DNA of 64,000 nucleotides. It comes from Eledone cirrhosa. Lineage: Eukaryota. The stretch is from positions 44,950,001 to 45,014,000 of the forward strand of contig OZ024747.1 in assembly GCA_964016885.1 (NCBI GenBank), written 5' to 3'. The notes below the pieces were generated by a model. That model was not told the origin of the DNA and made no database searches. It saw only the letters and a program-made list of their open reading frames with translations. Shown here in pieces: positions 14,062 to 55,887 of the stretch (position 1 is its first letter; each line of letters begins with the position of its first letter). A program made the translations under genes and the position numbers.

Positions 14062-14170
<109 letters not shown>

Positions 14171-14181
14171 TATATATATAT

Positions 14182-17100
14182 GTATGCTGTGTGCAAGAGA
14201 CTAGATGGAGAGGAGGGTCTGCTAGAGTCCTTGTAGGAAAAAGCCAGTGCTACAAATTTTTCTGGGTGGGAAATGACGATGGGATGGGTGGTGTAGGTAT
14301 ACTATTAGCTGACAAGTGGGTAGATAAAGTAATCTCAGTGTACAGGGTAAATGCAAGAATCATTAAACTCAGACTAGTCCTGAATAAGACAATTACCACA
14401 ATAATATCAGCTTACGCACCCCAATCGGGGCTGCCAGACGAACTTAAGGATAGGTTTTACGAGTCCCTAATACACACTACTGCTCTAACAGACGACAAGG
14501 ACTTCCTAATCATTGCAGGAGATTTTAACGGACACGTAGGTAAACACTGCGACGGCTTCAATAGAGTACATGGAGGCCATGGAGTTGGCACAAGGAATGA
14601 GGAAGGATTCAGACTTCTAGAATTCTGCGACGCCAATGACATGTCGATATGTAACACAAACTTTAAAAAACCCGACAACCACCTGATCACCTATAGATCA
14701 GGGGAGCACTCTAGTCAGTTAGATTTTATCCTCATCAGAGGACGTGACAGATGGACGGTCGTAAACACAAAAGCCTTCCCTAGTGAGGAATGTACATCCC
14801 AACATAGCTTAGTTGTCAGCGACCTCACGGTCAGAACTAGACGAGCCCTGAAACAGAGGCCAACCTGGAGAAGAAAGATCTGGAAGCTGAAAGTCCCCTC
14901 AACCAGTAACAGATTTAAAGATATTTTACTCAACGCCTACGACAGTAAAGAAGAACAGATAGAGACATTTAACGTAGAAGAGAACTGGGAGTTCCTAAAA
15001 AATAACTTACTAGAGGCGACGGATGAGGTTTGTGGCTGGAGTAAGACCTCAAGCAGGAGGAGAGTGACTTGGTGGTGGAACAATAAGGTAGATGAAGCAG
15101 TCAAGGCCAAGAGACAGGCATGGAAAGAATGGAAGAACGGGGGGAGCAGGGTACATTACATAGAGACCAAGAGGGAAGCTAGGCGACAAGTATACTTAGC
15201 TAGGAGGGAAGCAGAGGATAGAAAATTCAAGCATGTTTTACAACGTGAGGACCAGAAACAGGAGGTATTCAAGATTGCGAGGCAGTGTGTCAGAGATAGT
15301 TGTGATGTCATTGGAGAGAAGTGTATCCGGAATGATAAAGGTGAGCTTGCCCTCACAAGTGCTGAGAAGAAAGATGCATGGAAGAGTCATTATGATAGAT
15401 TACTAAATGAGGAGAATGCATGGGAAGAAGAGACTCTACCCCACGTAGACCCTATAGAGGGACCAGCAGTACAAGTCAGCGGCAGCGTAGTAAGTAAGGC
15501 AATCAGAGATATGAAGATAGGGAAGGCAACCGGTCCATCGGGTATAGCTGCCGAGATGCTGAAGGCATCTGGGTCTGTAGGTCACACTATAACCACACGT
15601 ATCGTTAACCAGGTAATACTAGAGGGGGCCATACCAAAAGATTGGTGCAGTAGCATCATTGTCAACTGCTACAAAGGTAAAGGCGATGCACTAGATAGAG
15701 GAAACTATAGAGGTATAAAGTTGATGGACCAGGTCATGAAAGTAACAGAAAGAGTTATAGCACAGCTGATTAGGGACCGGGTGACTATAGACGAGATGCA
15801 ATTTGGGTTTGTACCAGGGAAAGGCACCACTGATGCCCTCTTCCTTGTGAGGCAATTACAGGAAAAGTACCTAGCTAAAAGTAAGCCACTCTACTTGGCA
15901 TTTGTCGACCTTGAGAAAGCCTTTGACAGAGTTCCACGTGCAGTAATCTGGTGGGCTCTTAGAAAACTAGGAGTAGATGAATGGCTTGTGAAAGCGGTAC
16001 AAGCCATGTATAGGGGAGCAGTCAGCAAAGTTAGGATTGGCAATGAGTATAGCGAGGAATTTAGCGTACAGGTTGGGGTCCACCAGGGCTCTGTTCTTAG
16101 CCCTCTCCTGTTCATCATAGTCCTGCAGGCAATAACGGAGGAGTTTAAGACCGGATGCCCATGGGAACTCCTGTATGCTGATGACCTCGCACTCATAGCT
16201 GAATCTATGGTAGAACTAGAGAATAAATTCCAAACCTGGAAGCAGGGACTAGAGAGAAAGGGCCTCAAAGTCAACATGACAAAGACTAAGGTCCTTATAA
16301 GTAGACGAGAAAACAGAACCCAGATCCCCTCAGGGAAATGGCCTTGCTCAGTATGTAGGAAAGGTGTAGGTAGGAACTCCATTCTCTGCCCCAAATGCAA
16401 ACAATGGGTACACAAGAGATGTAGCGGGATCTCAGGAAGCTTAATTAAGAATGTAGGATTCACATGCAGCAGCTGTGCTGAAACAGCAAGCAAACAGCCA
16501 CAGGAAACAAGTACCACCAATCTCTGGGAGGGCCCTGTAGAAACAGTAGACAGCTTCTGCTACCTAGGTGACCGAATTAGCAACGGAGGTGGGTGCTCAG
16601 AAAGTACAATAACTAGGGTAAGAACGGGATGGAAGAAGTTTAGGGAACTACTACCACTGCTAGCTGCAAAAGGCTTCTCCCTCAGAATGAAAGGCAGACT
16701 GTATGATGCGTGTATCCGAACAGCGATGTTGCATGGTAGTGAGACCTGGGCGCTGAAGGTGGAAGACTTACGTAGATTAGAGAGAAACGAAGCCTGCATG
16801 CTCCGATGGATGTGTAACAGTAATATACGTGAACGACAAAGCATAAAGGAATTGAGAGAGAGACTGAGTATAAGAGGAATCAAATGCTGCGTGCAGGAGA
16901 GGCGGTTACGCTGGTATGGACATGTGATGCGTATGAAGGATGACAGCTGCATAAAAAGGTGCAGAGCACTAGAAATTGATGGAAACCGCGGAGTGGGGAG
17001 ACCCAAGATGACTTGGGATGAGGTGATAAAAGCCGACTTTACCCAACTACACCTCTCAAAGTCAATGACACACGACCGTGACTTCTGGCATCACGCAGTA

Positions 17101-17438
17101 ATACAGGGTACCCGACCTCCCATGGGTACATGCTGAAGCATATAAACAATATGCCCCCCCCCCCCCACCGCAAGGTGGTCGTGGAGGTGCCACGGCAAAA
17201 AAGCACCCAGCCCACACTGTAAAGTGGACGTGTAGGCGCCACGAAAAAGCACCCAGCACTCACTGTAAATGAGGTTGGTGTTAGGAAGGGCATCCAGCTG
17301 TAGAAATCAAGCCAGATCAGTTCCTGTATGAGCAAGGCATGGTCAGCCGACCAGACACTGCCCACAACAGGACAACCCGTCTAACCCATGCTAGCGTGGA
17401 AGAACGGACGTAAAACGGTGATGATCATGATGATGATG

Positions 17439-17478: not shown

Positions 17479-17984
17479 TGATATTTATATCATATGCATA
17501 TGCATTAGAAACATATATAAATTACAGAATAATCAAAACTATGTTAATGAACATAGTTTTGATTATTCAGTAATTTATATTCTGGCTCTCTCTGTAAAAC
17601 ATCTGATGTATTTACATTGAGCTATTTTTTTTACTGGTAATACGGTGGTAATGAATTACTGACCTTTCCTGTTTATAACTATATATAGTGTATATATAAG
17701 TATAAATAATATTATTATTATTATTATTATTATATATACATACATTCTGTGCAGCTGCAACCCCTCCGTAAAGTGATCAGTAATAGGAAGGGCTTCCAGA
17801 CATGGAGAGCTTGGCATGACAAACTCTTTTGAGCACTCAATGGAATATAAGATTGTACGTTCACAGGACCTTGGCCAGCCTTGGATATCAGTGGCTCCAC
17901 TTCAGTACTGACTTGGTCTACATGAGCCCATCCAACCCTTGCTAGCAGAGAAAGTGGACGTTAAAACAATGATGATAATCATTC

Positions 17985-32511: not shown

Positions 32512-32578
<67 letters not shown>

Positions 32579-32621
32579 TATAAGTATTAATAAAATAGAT
32601 GTTCTTTTGATCAATTACATT

Positions 32622-32672
32622 TCATTATACATATTTCGGATGTACAACAGTACGTCCTCATCAGAAAAAATA
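32622..32672 (-). ncRNA. Minimal type I hammerhead motif, copy 1
   Basis: CUGAUGA-GGAcGUAC uguu GUACaUCC-GAAA-UAUGUA-UA/AUGA. Stem I is weak. Confidence 0.65.
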
Positions 32673-32730
32673 TATTAATACATGACATACCCTGAGATAT
32701 TAAATGGTTAAGATTTAATCAATCTACCTT

Positions 32731-32781
32731 TCATTATAGATATTTCGGATGTACAACAGTACGTCCTCATCAGACAATATA
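32731..32781 (-). ncRNA. Minimal type I hammerhead motif, copy 2
   Basis: Same core and stem II as copy 1, offset by 109 bp. Stem III reads UAUCUAUA. Confidence 0.6.
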
Positions 32782-33007
32782 TAATGATACATGACATACC
32801 CTGAGATATTAAATGGTTAAGATTTTAATCAATCTACCTTGATTAAATATGTATAATAAAATGTAATTGATCAAAAGAACATCTATTTTATTAATACTTA
32901 TATTTTAATATTAATAACTCCTGAAAATTATTTCAGTTGAGTGCTTCCAATCTACTGTAAAACTCATTCTTTGACATAATCATCGAATATTGTTTAACAA
33001 CTTATTA

Positions 33008-33080
<73 letters not shown>

Positions 33081-33164: not shown

Positions 33165-33205
33165 GGGGAACGACGTTTCGGGCATAAGCCCTTCTTCAGG
33201 TGAAA
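33165..33205 (-). ncRNA. Minimal PLE-type hammerhead motif
   Basis: cac-CUGAAGA-A-GGGC uuau GCCC-GAAA-CG-UC/GU, with a palindromic ACGU stem III. Stem I is short. Confidence 0.75.
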
Positions 33206-34714: not shown

Positions 34715-35280
34715 GGGGAGTTCAGGCCGGGGGAGTGTGGGTCTGTAGGGTGAAGATGGTTCGTTGTTCGACCCTGAGGAGAGTGGCGGGTGTTCCGTGG
34801 CATTGGAGTAGACCACAGACTGTGAGGTGGTGTGCGGAATGTCCAGGGGCACCAAAGTGGCGGGCAATGGGGGAACTACCACCGAGACGAATATCTCGGA
34901 GGTGTTCAGTAAACCGGTCCGCCAAGCAACGTCCAGTCTGTTCGACGTAGGTTGCGCTGCACGGAGTGCAGCGAAGTCCGTAGACTAGGTTGGACGAGGT
35001 GCAGCGGAAGGTATGCCAGACAGAGAGAGAGTGGCCGTTGGGACCCTAGAAGGTGGTGGTGTTGGTGATGTGGGGACAGGTGTTGCAGCGGGGCCTGGAA
35101 CAGGGAAGGGAACCGGTGGGGGGGGCGTGGGAGGGGGGAGCTGTGGACGAGGATGGTGCGGAGATTGCGTGCGCGTTTGAAGGAGGTGGGGCTGGGAAGA
35201 TGTGGGAGGTGGAGGGGTCGGACTGGAGGCGTCGGAAGAGGAGGAGGATGGTGCGATGGAGAGGTATGGTGGAGGGATAT
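34715..35280 (-). pseudogene. PLE linker, Cys-rich finger and GIY-YIG endonuclease
   Basis: FRRLQSDPSTSHIFPAPP...PCSRPRCNTCPHI...(TAG at 35046-35048)...FRCTSSNLVYGLRCTPCSATYVEQTGRCLADRFTEHLRDI...PIARHF...EQRTIFTLQT. Confidence 0.88.
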
Positions 35281-35378: not shown

Positions 35379-35743
35379 AACCAAAGATTAATATGGTTCG
35401 TTGATTAATCAACAAATACAATTTTACAATAGATTAGAAGCACTCGACAAGATTTTCCTGGAGTATTTAATATTATTCAAAATGTTAATAAATGAAAAAT
35501 ATTCTCATAATCAAAATATATATTTTATTATACATATTTCAAAGGTACAATGGTGTTTAAGTATGTTTTCATCAGACTGCCAATACTGGAATTGAATAAT
35601 AAAAACCGTAGCGGTATGTCACATATCAAATCTTATATTTTGTCTGATGAAAACGTACTTAAACACCATTGTACGTTTGAAATATGTATAATAAAATATA
35701 TATTTTGATTATGAGAATATTTTTCATTTATTAACGTTTTGAA

Positions 35744-35750
<7 letters not shown>
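35379..35750. mobile_element. Non-coding palindromic hammerhead cassette in (TA)n
   Basis: ~109 bp inverted arms at 35469-35577 and 35642-35750, a 64 bp spacer, and a tail at 35379-35468 homologous to the reverse complement of 32911-32965. Confidence 0.85.
35634..35700 (+). ncRNA. Minimal type I hammerhead ribozyme
   Basis: Stem I UAUAUUUUGU/AUAAAAUAUA (10 bp), CUGAUGA at 35644-35650, stem II AAACGUAC/GUACGUUU (8 bp), GAAA at 35679-35682, and AUA cleavage predicted after 35690. Confidence 0.82.
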
Positions 35751-43307: not shown

Positions 43308-43460
43308 TATGTAAAAGGTAGACAGAAATAACAACACAATCAGTACAGTATATGGAGGGAATATATTAGTATAACACTTGGCTATTTCAAGCATTATATT
43401 AATATATTCCTTCCATATACTGTACCGATTATGCTGTTATTTCTGTTTACCTTTTACATA
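43308..43460. repeat. ~72 bp-arm hairpin with a ~7 nt loop
   Basis: TATGTAAAAGGTAGACAGAAATAAC... pairs with ...GTTATTTCTGTTTACCTTTTACATA. Confidence 0.9.
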
Positions 43461-43854: not shown

Positions 43855-44300
43855 ACTCCACCCCAACATACACAATGGTTTTTTAAAACCCACAAGCATG
43901 TACACTTGCTCTCCCCTAGATTATCACACTTACATCCACGCATACACACACACCTAACCTTCTGCCAACTCCACTCGGACTCCATTTTTCCTCTCCCCCC
44001 CCACACCACATGCACCACCACACCCATTTCCTCTCAGATCCATACACCCCTCTCACTTTTCTATAACTTTTATTTTTCACTTCATGTTCCATTTTCAATT
44101 TATTTTTATTACGATTTATCTTGCGAACTCCCTCTTCACTCCTTCTTGGAGTTCCTCTCCCCCACTCTCCCTATGAAGGGCTTATGCCCGAAACGTTTCA
44201 ACCACACACCCCACTCTCACCAAGTATGAAACTAATAATATTTGTAACATTTAATCCTGCATTTGTCTGTTTTTTGTTTTCTGTTACTGCTATTCTGAAC
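43855..44300 (+). mobile_element. Diverged Neptune-like PLE 3' end with a damaged hammerhead
   Basis: CTATGAAGGGCTTATGCCCGAAACGTT at 44171-44197 (G5 missing) and CCCCACTCTCA..AACTAATAA are shared with 33075-33205. Flanked by (TA)n. Confidence 0.75.
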
Positions 44301-47502: not shown

Positions 47503-47964
47503 CATATCAACTAGAAATTGATTGACATATATATATATATATAAAATAAACATATGAAACAATCTCAGGGAATAATTTGTAAAAGTGTGTAAGCACACAT
47601 AGCTATGTAGGTAACTTATTAAAGTTTAACTAGAACTTTAAAAATGGATACTTTATAAATTGATTAATCTTCCTTGTATATATTTCATTAAAGAAATATA
47701 TTTCACCATTAATCGATCGGTAAACCACAGTAGCCAAGTCCCGGATTTTCAACAAGGGAGAAGATCTAACTATCTGAGTTTACACAGCAAATTTAAATCT
47801 ACAAATGACTAACAGCACGTCTTACAGTTTTTAAAAATACACACATCGTACCAGCTTCATCCCAGTGGCGTGAATAGGATTATCGACAACTAGAAATAGC
47901 AGCCAAGTCCTTTCAACTGAGTTAGCTCTACAATTAAGGGATCGTGTATATATCCAAAATTATA

Positions 47965-48037
47965 TTAAGAGTGTCTTGTCAGAGAGACATGCGCCATATC
48001 CACCGTAGAATATGTCTCTCTGACATGACACCCTTAA
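47965..48037. repeat. Short inverted repeat with TTAA ends (possible Kolobok-type micro-MITE)
   Basis: TTAAGAGTGTCTTGTCAGAGAGACAT pairs with ATGTCTCTCTGACATGACACCCTTAA. Confidence 0.6.
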
Positions 48038-48756
48038 GTTCATTTTGGATATATATATACATATATATTTATCATCACCATCATCACCATTTTACATTTA
48101 TTTTCCCTGTTTACATAGGTTAAGTTGCCATGTTCTGAAACTAGACAAGTCAGATGACTATGTCTTGCTTATATGTTCCATTTTGGCATGGTTTCTATGG
48201 CTGGAGGCCCTTTTTAATGCCAACCATTTCATGGCATATACCATCTGACACACACACAAACAAACACAGACACACACAAACAAACACACACACACATATA
48301 TATATATATGGAAAACAGTTTTTCCTTTATATTTTGTTATTAAAGAGGCAGCTATTTCAAGTTCCAATTTCTTTATTAAAACTTTCTCATAATTTCCTAA
48401 GTCCATAATTTAATCAACGTTTCCAGACCTTTACTTTCTCATCATCAAGAGTATTTTTGGTTTATTTTTACTGCCTCTTTTCGTGAAGTTTAATTCAGTT
48501 CTTACTTTGCTACCTTTCTATGGCTTTCTTTCCTGTGAGTGTCTGGAAGCATTAATTAAATTATGGTCTTAGGAACTTTGTCATTCTAAATGAACTGTAG
48601 AGGCCTTATTAGACAATGTTCTAATAAGAGAAACCAAAACTTGTCATATATATAAAAACCTGGCATTTCGAGCCACTTTTTCCCATAAAAAACAGAATTA
48701 ACATTCAAAGACCAACCAGATGTGAGAAAAACCACAGACCCTCCATCTCAATTCTA

Positions 48757-49143: not shown

Positions 49144-49223
49144 TTATAGAGGCTGGATTATTATAGAATTCCAGTAATAATCAGGAACTGATTATACAGA
49201 GCGATTGACGGTCCAGCAAAAAT

Positions 49224-49365
49224 CTTCCTACTTTTCAAATGAAAGTAGTGAAAAATAGTGTATTAGTGATATTGTTTAAATAAGTTGTACTATTAACAAT
49301 TCTGCTTACATATTACTAAGTAGCTTTCCACTATTTTTCCCTACTTTCATTTGAAAAGTAGAAAG
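49224..49365. repeat. Inverted repeat with 37 bp arms
   Basis: CTTCCTACTTTTCAAATGAAAGTAGTGAAAAATAGTG pairs with CACTATTTTTCCCTACTTTCATTTGAAAAGTAGAAAG. Confidence 0.85.
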
Positions 49366-49922
49366 AAACCAAATCTTCTGAGAAATAAATATCACAATAC
49401 TAGACATTTAAACCCTCATTCAAATCTTTTGAATATAACCAGAGGATCTAGTTTCCATGTCAACACTTAATAGAAAGCTTAAACGAGGACTTAGTTTGTA
49501 ATGCAATCTTTATGTTACGAGTAACTTGTGAGAGATAAGATGAGATCTTGATTTGTGTATGCCCTGACAGTACTGGTTGTAGATGTGTGGCTACAGGACA
49601 CTTGGATGTATGTCATTCATAATTTTATTGTTTAAATTTTGTATGACCAGTAATTGTTTGTTAAACTTATGAGAACTTATCTTAGATCTAAGTAAAAGTG
49701 TGAGAAGATGTCATGTTATCTCACTTCAAGAGTTACTCATAAAATAAAGATCAAATTTCAAACTGGCAAAATCTCATTTAATCTTTGTGTTTTGTTTTGT
49801 ATGGACCTCAACACATATTAGGATCAGCAATTAAACTTATATATGCTTGGCTTGTATTTGGGCAATCATTAAATGTGTAGAGCAATCACAATGTTTATCT
49901 AATGTTTGAAGGCCTGTTTTGT

Positions 49923-54493: not shown

Positions 54494-54500
54494 ATTTACC
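51720..54500. repeat. Dense microsatellite field: (TA)n, (ATATATATAC)n, (AAAAT)n, (AAT)n, (CA)n
   Basis: Directly visible. It is the source of the YIYI ORFs. Confidence 0.9.
52736..53118 (+). mobile_element. Head-to-tail dimer of SINE family 1
   Basis: Two consecutive units, each preceded by TTATTACCAAGGC. Confidence 0.9.
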
Positions 54501-54803
54501 AAATTATATTTTATATCATTATATTCTTTTGTTACTTTTTTTTATTGTAGAATTTTTATTTGTTCATTTTATTTGTGTATGTGTGTCTGCATGATTTTGT
54601 TGTTGCTGTATCAATATTTAAGAAATATCTATGAGTTAAATTGAATAAACAATGATGTGTGTATTGAGTTAGAATTTGTTGCTATAGAGCACATAAAATT
54701 TTATAGTTTGTACGCAGGTAAATATATATATATATATATAAATATATATATATAAAATAATTAAGTCAAATATTTAAAATTTGGCTTCGTTTATTAAAGA
54801 TAT

Positions 54804-54858
54804 ACTGCTATATATATTTCGGTGACAGCCATCATTGGCTGTGTCCTCTTCAGGCAGT
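54804..54858 (-). ncRNA. Minimal type I hammerhead (left arm)
   Basis: ACUGC-CUGAAGA-GGacACAGCC aaugau GGCUGUcaCC-GAAA-UAUAUA-UA/GCAGU. Confidence 0.8.
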
Positions 54859-55190
54859 CCGAATTGGTGTGGTAGAGATGGGTACACATGTTGTTGAATT
54901 GTTTTACTCCGTCAATGCTCTGATATGTCCAGCTCCTGGTTGGCTTGTTATTTCTCTGAGGAACTGGAATCATATGAATTCGAACAAATGAATTTCGGCG
55001 TCATAGGACACTCTCTCCTCCAATTGGTCAGTTGTGAGAATGTTCCTAACCGAAATTCGTTTGTCGAATTCATATGATTCCAGTTCCTCAGAGAAATAAC
55101 AACCCAACCAGGAGCTGGACATATCGATGTATTGACGGAGTAAAACACACTTCAACAACATGTTTACTTGTCTTTCCTACACCAATTCGG

Positions 55191-55245
55191 ACTGCCTGAA
55201 GAGGTCACAGCCAATGAAGGTTGTCACCGAAATATATATAGCAGT
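55191..55245 (+). ncRNA. Minimal type I hammerhead (right arm)
   Basis: ACUGC-CUGAAGA-GGUcACAGCC aaugaa GGUUGUcACC-GAAA-UAUAUA-UA/GCAGU, with cleavage predicted after 55240. Confidence 0.85.
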
Positions 55246-55382
55246 ATATCTTTAATAAACGAAGCCAAATTTTAAATATTTGACTTAATTATTTTACATT
55301 ACTCCGGAGTAAACAAACCAACCTACATAGTTCGCCAAGTGCTCCATTCTGCATACTGAGGTATCGATAAACAACCAACATA

Positions 55383-55419
<37 letters not shown>

Positions 55420-55887
55420 TAGATAGATATAGTGATCCCTCATTAAACTATACTAATAGGAGGAAGGGCATACGTTTTAGCTGTCTGTTTGAGTTAATCA
55501 ACGGTAAAGTTCAATATTGTATACATTTACGATATTGAAGCTACACACAGTGTATGCTGACTGTTACAAACTACAGAAAATAAAACATGTAATTATATAT
55601 ATTTTATATAATTAATTAATGTTACATAATGTGAAAATATAAAACTCAATGTGAATTCTTAATGTCATTGAAATTCTGTAGGTAGGTGACTAATGAGCTT
55701 GATGGGATGAAGGGGATAATTTGTCATTATGAACTAGTAGAGATATGATGTTCTGCTGGTACTTTCTGCCCCCCTGTAGAAGTCTCAGGTTACTGAGGAA
55801 GGATTAAGTCAGCTGTAAGTGAGTTACGAATGTCATCTGTCAGTTTAACAGCTGCAGTAATTTCTGAGCAAGATGACTACAAGAATA

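Follow-up and report, generated by a model that had tools for sequence, protein, structure and literature searches.

A palindromic hammerhead locus in Eledone cirrhosa, read as a probable Penelope-type insertion with inverted arms and a one-sided tail

Penelope-like elements (PLEs) are described as typically leaving inverted, 5′-truncated copies with a one-sided tail of 30-40 bp in microsatellite targets (PMC8557442, PMC3846280). Self-priming has been proposed for the palindromes found at their inverted junctions (PMC3846280). In vitro work on the Poseidon element of the anole reports that AT-rich DNA is cut and extended on both strands, and that two reverse transcriptase (RT) start sites bound the tail (PMC11167929). 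Cephalopod genomes are described as rich in Penelope elements, and for the giant squid 235 hammerhead loci are listed (PMC13282606, PMC8967140, PMC6962438).

The type I hammerhead ribozymes of metazoan PLEs are reported to have low, dimer-dependent activity (PMC4209133; review PMC6765202). Pairs of hammerheads lying 100-700 bp apart on opposite strands, with a palindromic helix III, were reported in Schistosoma in 2014 (PMC4209133). Another group that carries hammerheads is the retrozymes, described as head-to-tail, probably pLTR-derived and associated with circular RNA (PMC7229834; bioRxiv 10.64898/2026.07.22.740005).

The locus described here lies in a 64,000-nucleotide stretch of contig OZ024747.1 of Eledone cirrhosa (hereafter the window), and positions 54753-55386 very probably constitute one insertion of the non-coding end of a Penelope-type retroelement into a (TA)n run. 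The original prediction placed a palindrome of about 545 bp at 54753..55296; it measures 544 bp, its unbroken match stopping at 54753 and 55296, and the insertion exceeds it, extending to 55386. Local alignment of the two halves pairs 54750-55015 with 55036-55299 around a loop of 20 nt (55016-55035), with 245/270 columns identical between the reverse-complemented left half and the right half, in agreement with the near-identical arms and the loop of about 20 nt that had been foreseen. The left side of the target site is a (TA)n run at 54722..54752. It is followed by the left arm (54753..54998, minus strand), a tail-less copy of the 3′ part of the element which reads outward and stops 54 nt past its cleavage site. 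The central hairpin (54976..55071) has a well-paired base and encloses a ragged zone at 54999-55049. The right arm (55050..55296, plus strand) is again an outward-reading copy of the 3′ part, and is continued by a one-sided tail of 90 nt (55297..55386, plus strand) that ends at the fixed 3′ end of the family. A second (TA)n run at 55387..55417 forms the right side of the target site. Both ends of the insertion thus lie inside (TA)n, where a target-site duplication cannot be read.

Each arm carries a complete type I hammerhead, one on each strand as predicted, with the core, a 5-bp stem I and a palindromic stem III of 8 nt. The right-arm ribozyme occupies 55191..55245 (plus strand; core 55196-55202, stem III 55232-55239, predicted cut after 55240) and its left-arm counterpart 54804..54858 (minus strand; core 54853-54847, predicted cut after 54809). 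Both have the conserved core, three helices and U-H cleavage site that define the class, but not a match to an Rfam model: at the gathering score Rfam returned 0 matches in the window, and so no hammerhead, and at E<=10 over 54500-55600 it returned 14 matches, none a hammerhead, the best being miRNA models far below their cut-offs. A pattern written from these copies, composed after the matches had been seen, gave 6 matches in the window against 0 in 100 shuffles. These ribozymes resemble those described for metazoan PLEs in their conserved core, 5-bp stem I, long stem II and short palindromic stem III (PMC4209133, PMC6765202), and differ from them in having no bulged base before stem II and internal mismatches within it. 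The short palindromic stem III implies dimer cleavage. In predicted folding its hairpin form is unfavourable (+4.7) whereas its self-duplex is favourable (-3.2), the signature of a dimer. Folding predictions for an arm by itself do not yield the monomeric hammerhead: the stem I probability is 0.02-0.10, and at 37 C the hammerhead fold lies 3.3-4.3 kcal/mol higher than the minimum. In both arms a 13-codon frame opens at an ATG of loop II and crosses the ribozyme (window 55213-55254). The ORF of the anole Poseidon element is reported to begin in stem II; the frame at this locus is probably a product of chance.

Over the 249 columns that lie beyond the ragged centre, 18 events separate the two arms. 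The arms had been said to differ only in stem II and loop II, which is true within the ribozyme, where the three differences (54844/55205, 54831/55218 and 54828/55221) all fall in stem II or loop II; elsewhere the claim fails, with 15 further events. At this divergence (18/249) intact cores are to be expected by chance, with a probability of about 0.11 for 29 columns. The differences are unevenly spread, with 0 in the outer 75 columns; 24/2000 permutations were as extreme, or 161/2000 once clusters were merged. Pure neutral drift explains this only marginally, which leaves room for conversion between the arms or for two templates.

Sequencing reads place the locus in a dispersed, high-copy family. 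Nine of 12 read sets, none of them on record as RNA, contain the stretch in whole or in part, and four of the 12 runs (X1, X4, X6 and X10) were aligned to 54748-55390 at 85% likeness. X10 consists of raw RAD reads from another sample and study, and X4 comes from another organism. The family is represented by 2878 contigs in X1, 125 contigs in X6, 7129 reads in X10 and 18 contigs in X4. In all four runs the loose ends past 55386 enter TA repeats (29 records in X1, 3 in X6, 559 in X10 and 1 in X4), which identifies the end of the tail as the fixed 3′ end of the family. The 5′ ends and junctions are variable. Thirty joints were found, and among the 15 of them listed, 13 connect opposite-facing pieces at differing places, comprising nine that lead from the left arm to the right arm or tail and four strand changes. 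Eight of these 13 have one side at 55069-55084, the right-hand base of the central hairpin, where depth in X1 rises about ninefold, read depth being no measure of copy number. A second 5′ boundary, some 12 nt ahead of the core of the ribozyme, lies at 54865 / 55184-55187: in X10, 1382 molecules stop at 54865, and their loose letters are mixed (agreement 0.35). Read ends of X10 also pile up at 54980, at a six-base restriction-type palindrome, and this pile was left out of account. The joint at 54830-55224 in X4 belongs to a head-to-head family copy in which one arm has the full ribozyme and the partner starts inside stem II.

The same reads show how the two arms came to differ. Among the 40 of 110 variant rows listed, reads bear the letter of the other arm at 54844, 54879, 54917, 54944 and 54989 in the left arm and at 55164, 55168, 55178, 55218 and 55221 in the right arm, and each arm has accordingly drifted separately from one ancestral sequence. 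The minority allele at 54844 shortens stem II of the left arm, and those at 55218 and 55221 weaken stem II of the right arm, and a reading of the stem II differences as compensatory was rejected: the reads show minority alleles by which pairs are lost or weakened. In the tail, at least eight positions among the variant rows listed differ from nearly all other copies. These differences in stem II and tail are decay rather than tuning. The centre is common to other copies. At 55022 another letter is found in 37 contigs of X1, 4 contigs of X6 and 211/215 reads of X10 (66 starts), at 55041 the letter of the other copies is shared likewise, and single contigs cross the central loop at 54852-55040 (X1) and 54962-55040 (X6). 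We also considered that the arms were joined at a perfect 8-mer palindrome at 55020-55027, an idea rejected by the other letter that the family has at 55022.

Masked self-BLAST and a motif search identified two further elements in the window that share this layout. Element B (32574..33009), from another family, has on its minus strand a retrozyme-like tandem of two 109-nt units, each with a hammerhead core, and on its plus strand an inverted 5′-truncated copy with a tail; the junction holds an 8-bp inverted repeat. Element C (35380..35750), related to B, has a hammerhead core on each strand and arms identical in 110/114 columns; its left arm, which carries the tail, is cut at the 5′ edge of the ribozyme. 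Stem I is 8 bp long in the right ribozyme of C and is without its 5′ strand in the left one. The six pattern matches fall in these three elements, the locus described above being element A, and all three have (TA)n on both sides and a tail on one arm. From the cut site to the (TA)n the short arm measures 54, 53 and 59 nt in A, B and C, and the tailed arm 145, 154 and 149 nt. ACTCC sits 60, 61 and 64 nt past the cut in the three elements, and A shares little with B and C beyond the 3′ half of the ribozyme.

The tail is present at one end only in 3/3 elements and, taken as the difference of the two arm lengths, measures 90-101 nt. The tails of B and C each fold into an ACTC...GAGT hairpin with a two-base bulge, followed by a UGA-loop-UCA hairpin. 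The tail of B folds better than its shuffles (1/200 as good) and that of C weakly so (26/200). The tail of element A folds no better than shuffles (103/200 as good), and in it the ACTC...GAGT motif has decayed. Majority letters of the family at 55330, 55337 and 55367 would, on pairing by eye, close the pairs 55301-04/55337-40, 55305-11/55328-34 and 55354-59/55364-69, and the stem letters of the hairpins so restored appear, again by eye, unlike those of B and C. The GAGTGCT motif also occurs in the loose-end letters of X1 and X4. Against 1000 shuffles, similarity between the tails is clear for B and C (0 as good), weak for A and C (44) and absent for A and B (164), and RNAalifold on the three tails gave 0 consensus pairs from an alignment that put the A copy out of register. 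A hairpin motif common to the three families is thus a lead, which for family A is based on read letters and by-eye pairing. A direct repeat inside the element, shared by its arm and its tail, was considered and is not significant (76/1000 shuffles as good). At the other end of the family sequence, RNA folding gives about -30 kcal/mol for the central hairpin (54983-55065). This ragged hairpin is a family feature and may prime the mirror arm. A literature search, with most subscription journals and repeat databases outside its range, returned no account of this family or of a structured tail of 90 nt.

The features expected of a Penelope-type insertion are present: a type I hammerhead with a short palindromic stem III, a (TA)n target, a fixed 3′ end, a head-to-head inverted copy with a variable junction, and a tail at one end. 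The locus is a truncated or non-autonomous copy, because no coding part is present. It holds no long frame, and so nothing of the ORF for RT and GIY-YIG endonuclease that marks an autonomous EN+ PLE; a comparison with Pfam, which also served to look for host exons, gave 0 families for 46/46 frames of the 44-64 kb interval, including six that cover the element. A first scan of metagenomes gave 0 matches and a second gave 2, which were set aside as chance, one lying inside a bacterial gene and the other being without the ribozyme core. Counted against the Penelope-type reading are the lack of an RT or endonuclease in or beside the element, a tail of about 90 nt against 30-40 nt in the papers, the unreadable target-site duplication, the uneven divergence of the arms and the centre shared with other copies.

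Elsewhere in the window, a GIY-YIG-like frame at 34725-35045 (minus strand) has no Pfam match but scores 0.95 to eukaryotic clusters of the Atlas in which about half of the members have GIY-YIG. A minimal hammerhead at 33199 (minus strand) lies downstream of it, after about 1.5 kb of low-complexity DNA. Frame and hammerhead are a further Penelope-type remnant, from another family, and their presence in the window counts in favour of the Penelope-type reading. Near 44170-44200 (plus strand) there is another region resembling this ribozyme, in which the core is broken.

The closest described systems are the inverted pLTR insertions of EN+ PLEs (Penelope/Poseidon, Neptune, Nematis and Hydra), which, as reported, share with the locus a head-to-head copy, a tail at one end, a junction hairpin, a hammerhead in the repeat, a microsatellite target and ragged 5′ ends (PMC3846280, PMC8557442). 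Unlike the insertions those papers describe, the locus has no ORF, its tail measures about 90 nt instead of 30-40, each arm holds a whole ribozyme, and the junction hairpin is common to a share of the family. A second comparison is with the non-LTR retrozymes, which are likewise reported as non-coding and low in GC, with a type I hammerhead and a unit of about 300 nt (PMC7229834; bioRxiv 10.64898/2026.07.22.740005). The locus differs from these in being head-to-head with one ribozyme per strand and no tandem; element B has the two-unit tandem. The layout is a known pattern and not a new regulatory switch, in which the unusually long structured tail and the shared central hairpin are notable.

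A mechanism can be proposed for its origin. A Penelope-type RT/GIY-YIG protein acting in trans would nick a TA site and copy the family RNA from its 3′ tail, and the mirror arm would be built during integration. Two routes can be envisaged. The cDNA could fold back at the family's own 5′ hairpin (54976-55071), a route modelled on the self-priming proposal for such junction palindromes (PMC3846280), or priming could occur from the second target end at a second RT start site, which would leave the tail on one side, as suggested by the in vitro work on anole Poseidon (PMC11167929). The enzyme may mostly stop at the base of the central hairpin and, where it reads through, the hairpin may prime or anneal the mirror arm; the clustering of junctions at the hairpin base is a hint of this. 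The arms would have been near-identical at insertion and have since drifted by about 3-4% each. The ribozyme would be inherited cargo in need of a dimer partner, which here lies on the other strand. Since two ribozymes cannot pair in one transcript and the copy is decaying, the locus is most likely inert.

A more specific reading, which we put forward tentatively and hold to be rather less probable than its negation, joins these observations into a family of about 400 nt that is non-autonomous and derived from Penelope. Its RNA would have a strong 5′ hairpin (54976-55071), whose base would usually halt the RT and which, once read through, would turn the cDNA back on itself and program a full mirror arm, and a two-hairpin 3′ tail of 90 nt marking the region where the RT binds and starts. 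As part of the same tentative reading, the tail would consist of an ACTC-stem-bulge-GAGT hairpin followed by a UGA-loop-UCR hairpin, with stem letters that differ among the three families. If true, such a family would be the source of many loci capable of yielding long double-stranded RNA and would provide an in-genome test of fold-back against two-ended priming.

The whole palindrome could itself be the mobile unit, a palindromic master of retro-MITE-like character copied as such with its centre included. Such a master would account for the asymmetric centre held by many copies, as seen in the 55022 letter in X1, X6 and X10 and in the centre-crossing contigs. It is nonetheless an unlikely source, as no fixed left/right differences exist outside the centre, the arm differences listed being minority alleles, the inversions of other copies lie at many different positions, the depth of the centre is far below that of the arms, and the tail is on one arm only. 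A ragged old centre without fixed differences between left and right arms fits better with arms rebuilt at insertion.

The original prediction also proposed a self-inhibited ribozyme, and a long double-stranded substrate for ADAR or Dicer. The first step of that argument, that full fold-back sequesters the hammerhead, agrees with the predicted folding of read-through RNA from either strand: the fold-back energy is -403 kcal/mol (plus) or -386 kcal/mol (minus), the probability of stem I is 0, and forcing the ribozyme would cost 76 (plus) or 74 (minus) kcal/mol. The accompanying statement that any transcript contains the antisense copy first is correct for RNA started outside the palindrome; RNA started near the centre would carry one sense ribozyme. 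That the host maintains the locus for either role is very improbable. Besides the predicted burial of the ribozyme, such a role would draw on the two intact cores, the identical outer 75 columns and the siRNAs that are reported to map to inverted Penelope regions in Drosophila (PMC3681739). Against it, the cores are expected to be intact by chance, the three differences in stem or loop II and the eight listed in the tail are minority alleles of which several break pairs, and the layout recurs in other families of the same window. The weakening of stem II and of the tail hairpins by minority alleles argues against a maintained switch, and Penelope-type integration explains the palindrome as one of its by-products, seen three times in the window and at many junction positions in the reads of the family. 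Read-through RNA, if there is any, would be double-stranded RNA of the ordinary, repeat-derived sort.

A further alternative is a non-autonomous DNA foldback transposon that captured a hammerhead. MITEs and foldback DNA transposons are short and non-coding, with long inverted arms and a TA target, and the locus is like them in each of these respects, as it is in its high copy number. It is unlike them in its asymmetric ends, its ribozyme cargo, and the one fixed 3′ end, ragged 5′ ends and variable junctions of its family. Nor does it have matched terminal inverted repeats, as the family end lies 90 nt past the right arm with no left counterpart, and elements B and C are alike in this one-sided tail. 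This reading is largely refuted and is left with hardly any probability. An assembly fold-back artefact has just as little: no whole-stretch contig occurs among the 24 listed of 3068 pieces and X1 may be the assembly's own sample, but the arms differ by 18 events and a ragged centre, mismatches that speak against it as originally argued, locus letters persist at low depth in short-read contigs (depth of all letters minus that of the other about 19 at 54917, 20 at 55022 and 180 at 55218), and the one-sided tail ends where other copies end.

As a Penelope-type insertion, the single locus is transposon debris and of little weight alone. The family, by contrast, is a natural data set on how PLEs make inverted ends and a one-sided tail, and two of its features, the long tail with a cross-family motif and the junction hot spot at the base of the family hairpin, can be tested by genome alignment. 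Such stumps also call for caution, since standard tools see them as MITEs or miRNA precursors and Rfam does not pick up their ribozymes.

Other repeats are found in the window. A stop-free frame of 1024 codons at 14062-17136 (plus strand), with endonuclease, reverse transcriptase and PHD-finger matches, represents a near-intact LINE, broken relatives of which lie at ~29.1-31.7 kb, 38.9-40.4 kb and 42.1-42.6 kb. Four smaller palindromes are without a hammerhead, at 43308-43460 (65/73 identical columns), 47947-48055 (39/44), 49223-49366 (36/38) and 17515-17580 (30/31), and these may be shorter stumps or MITEs.
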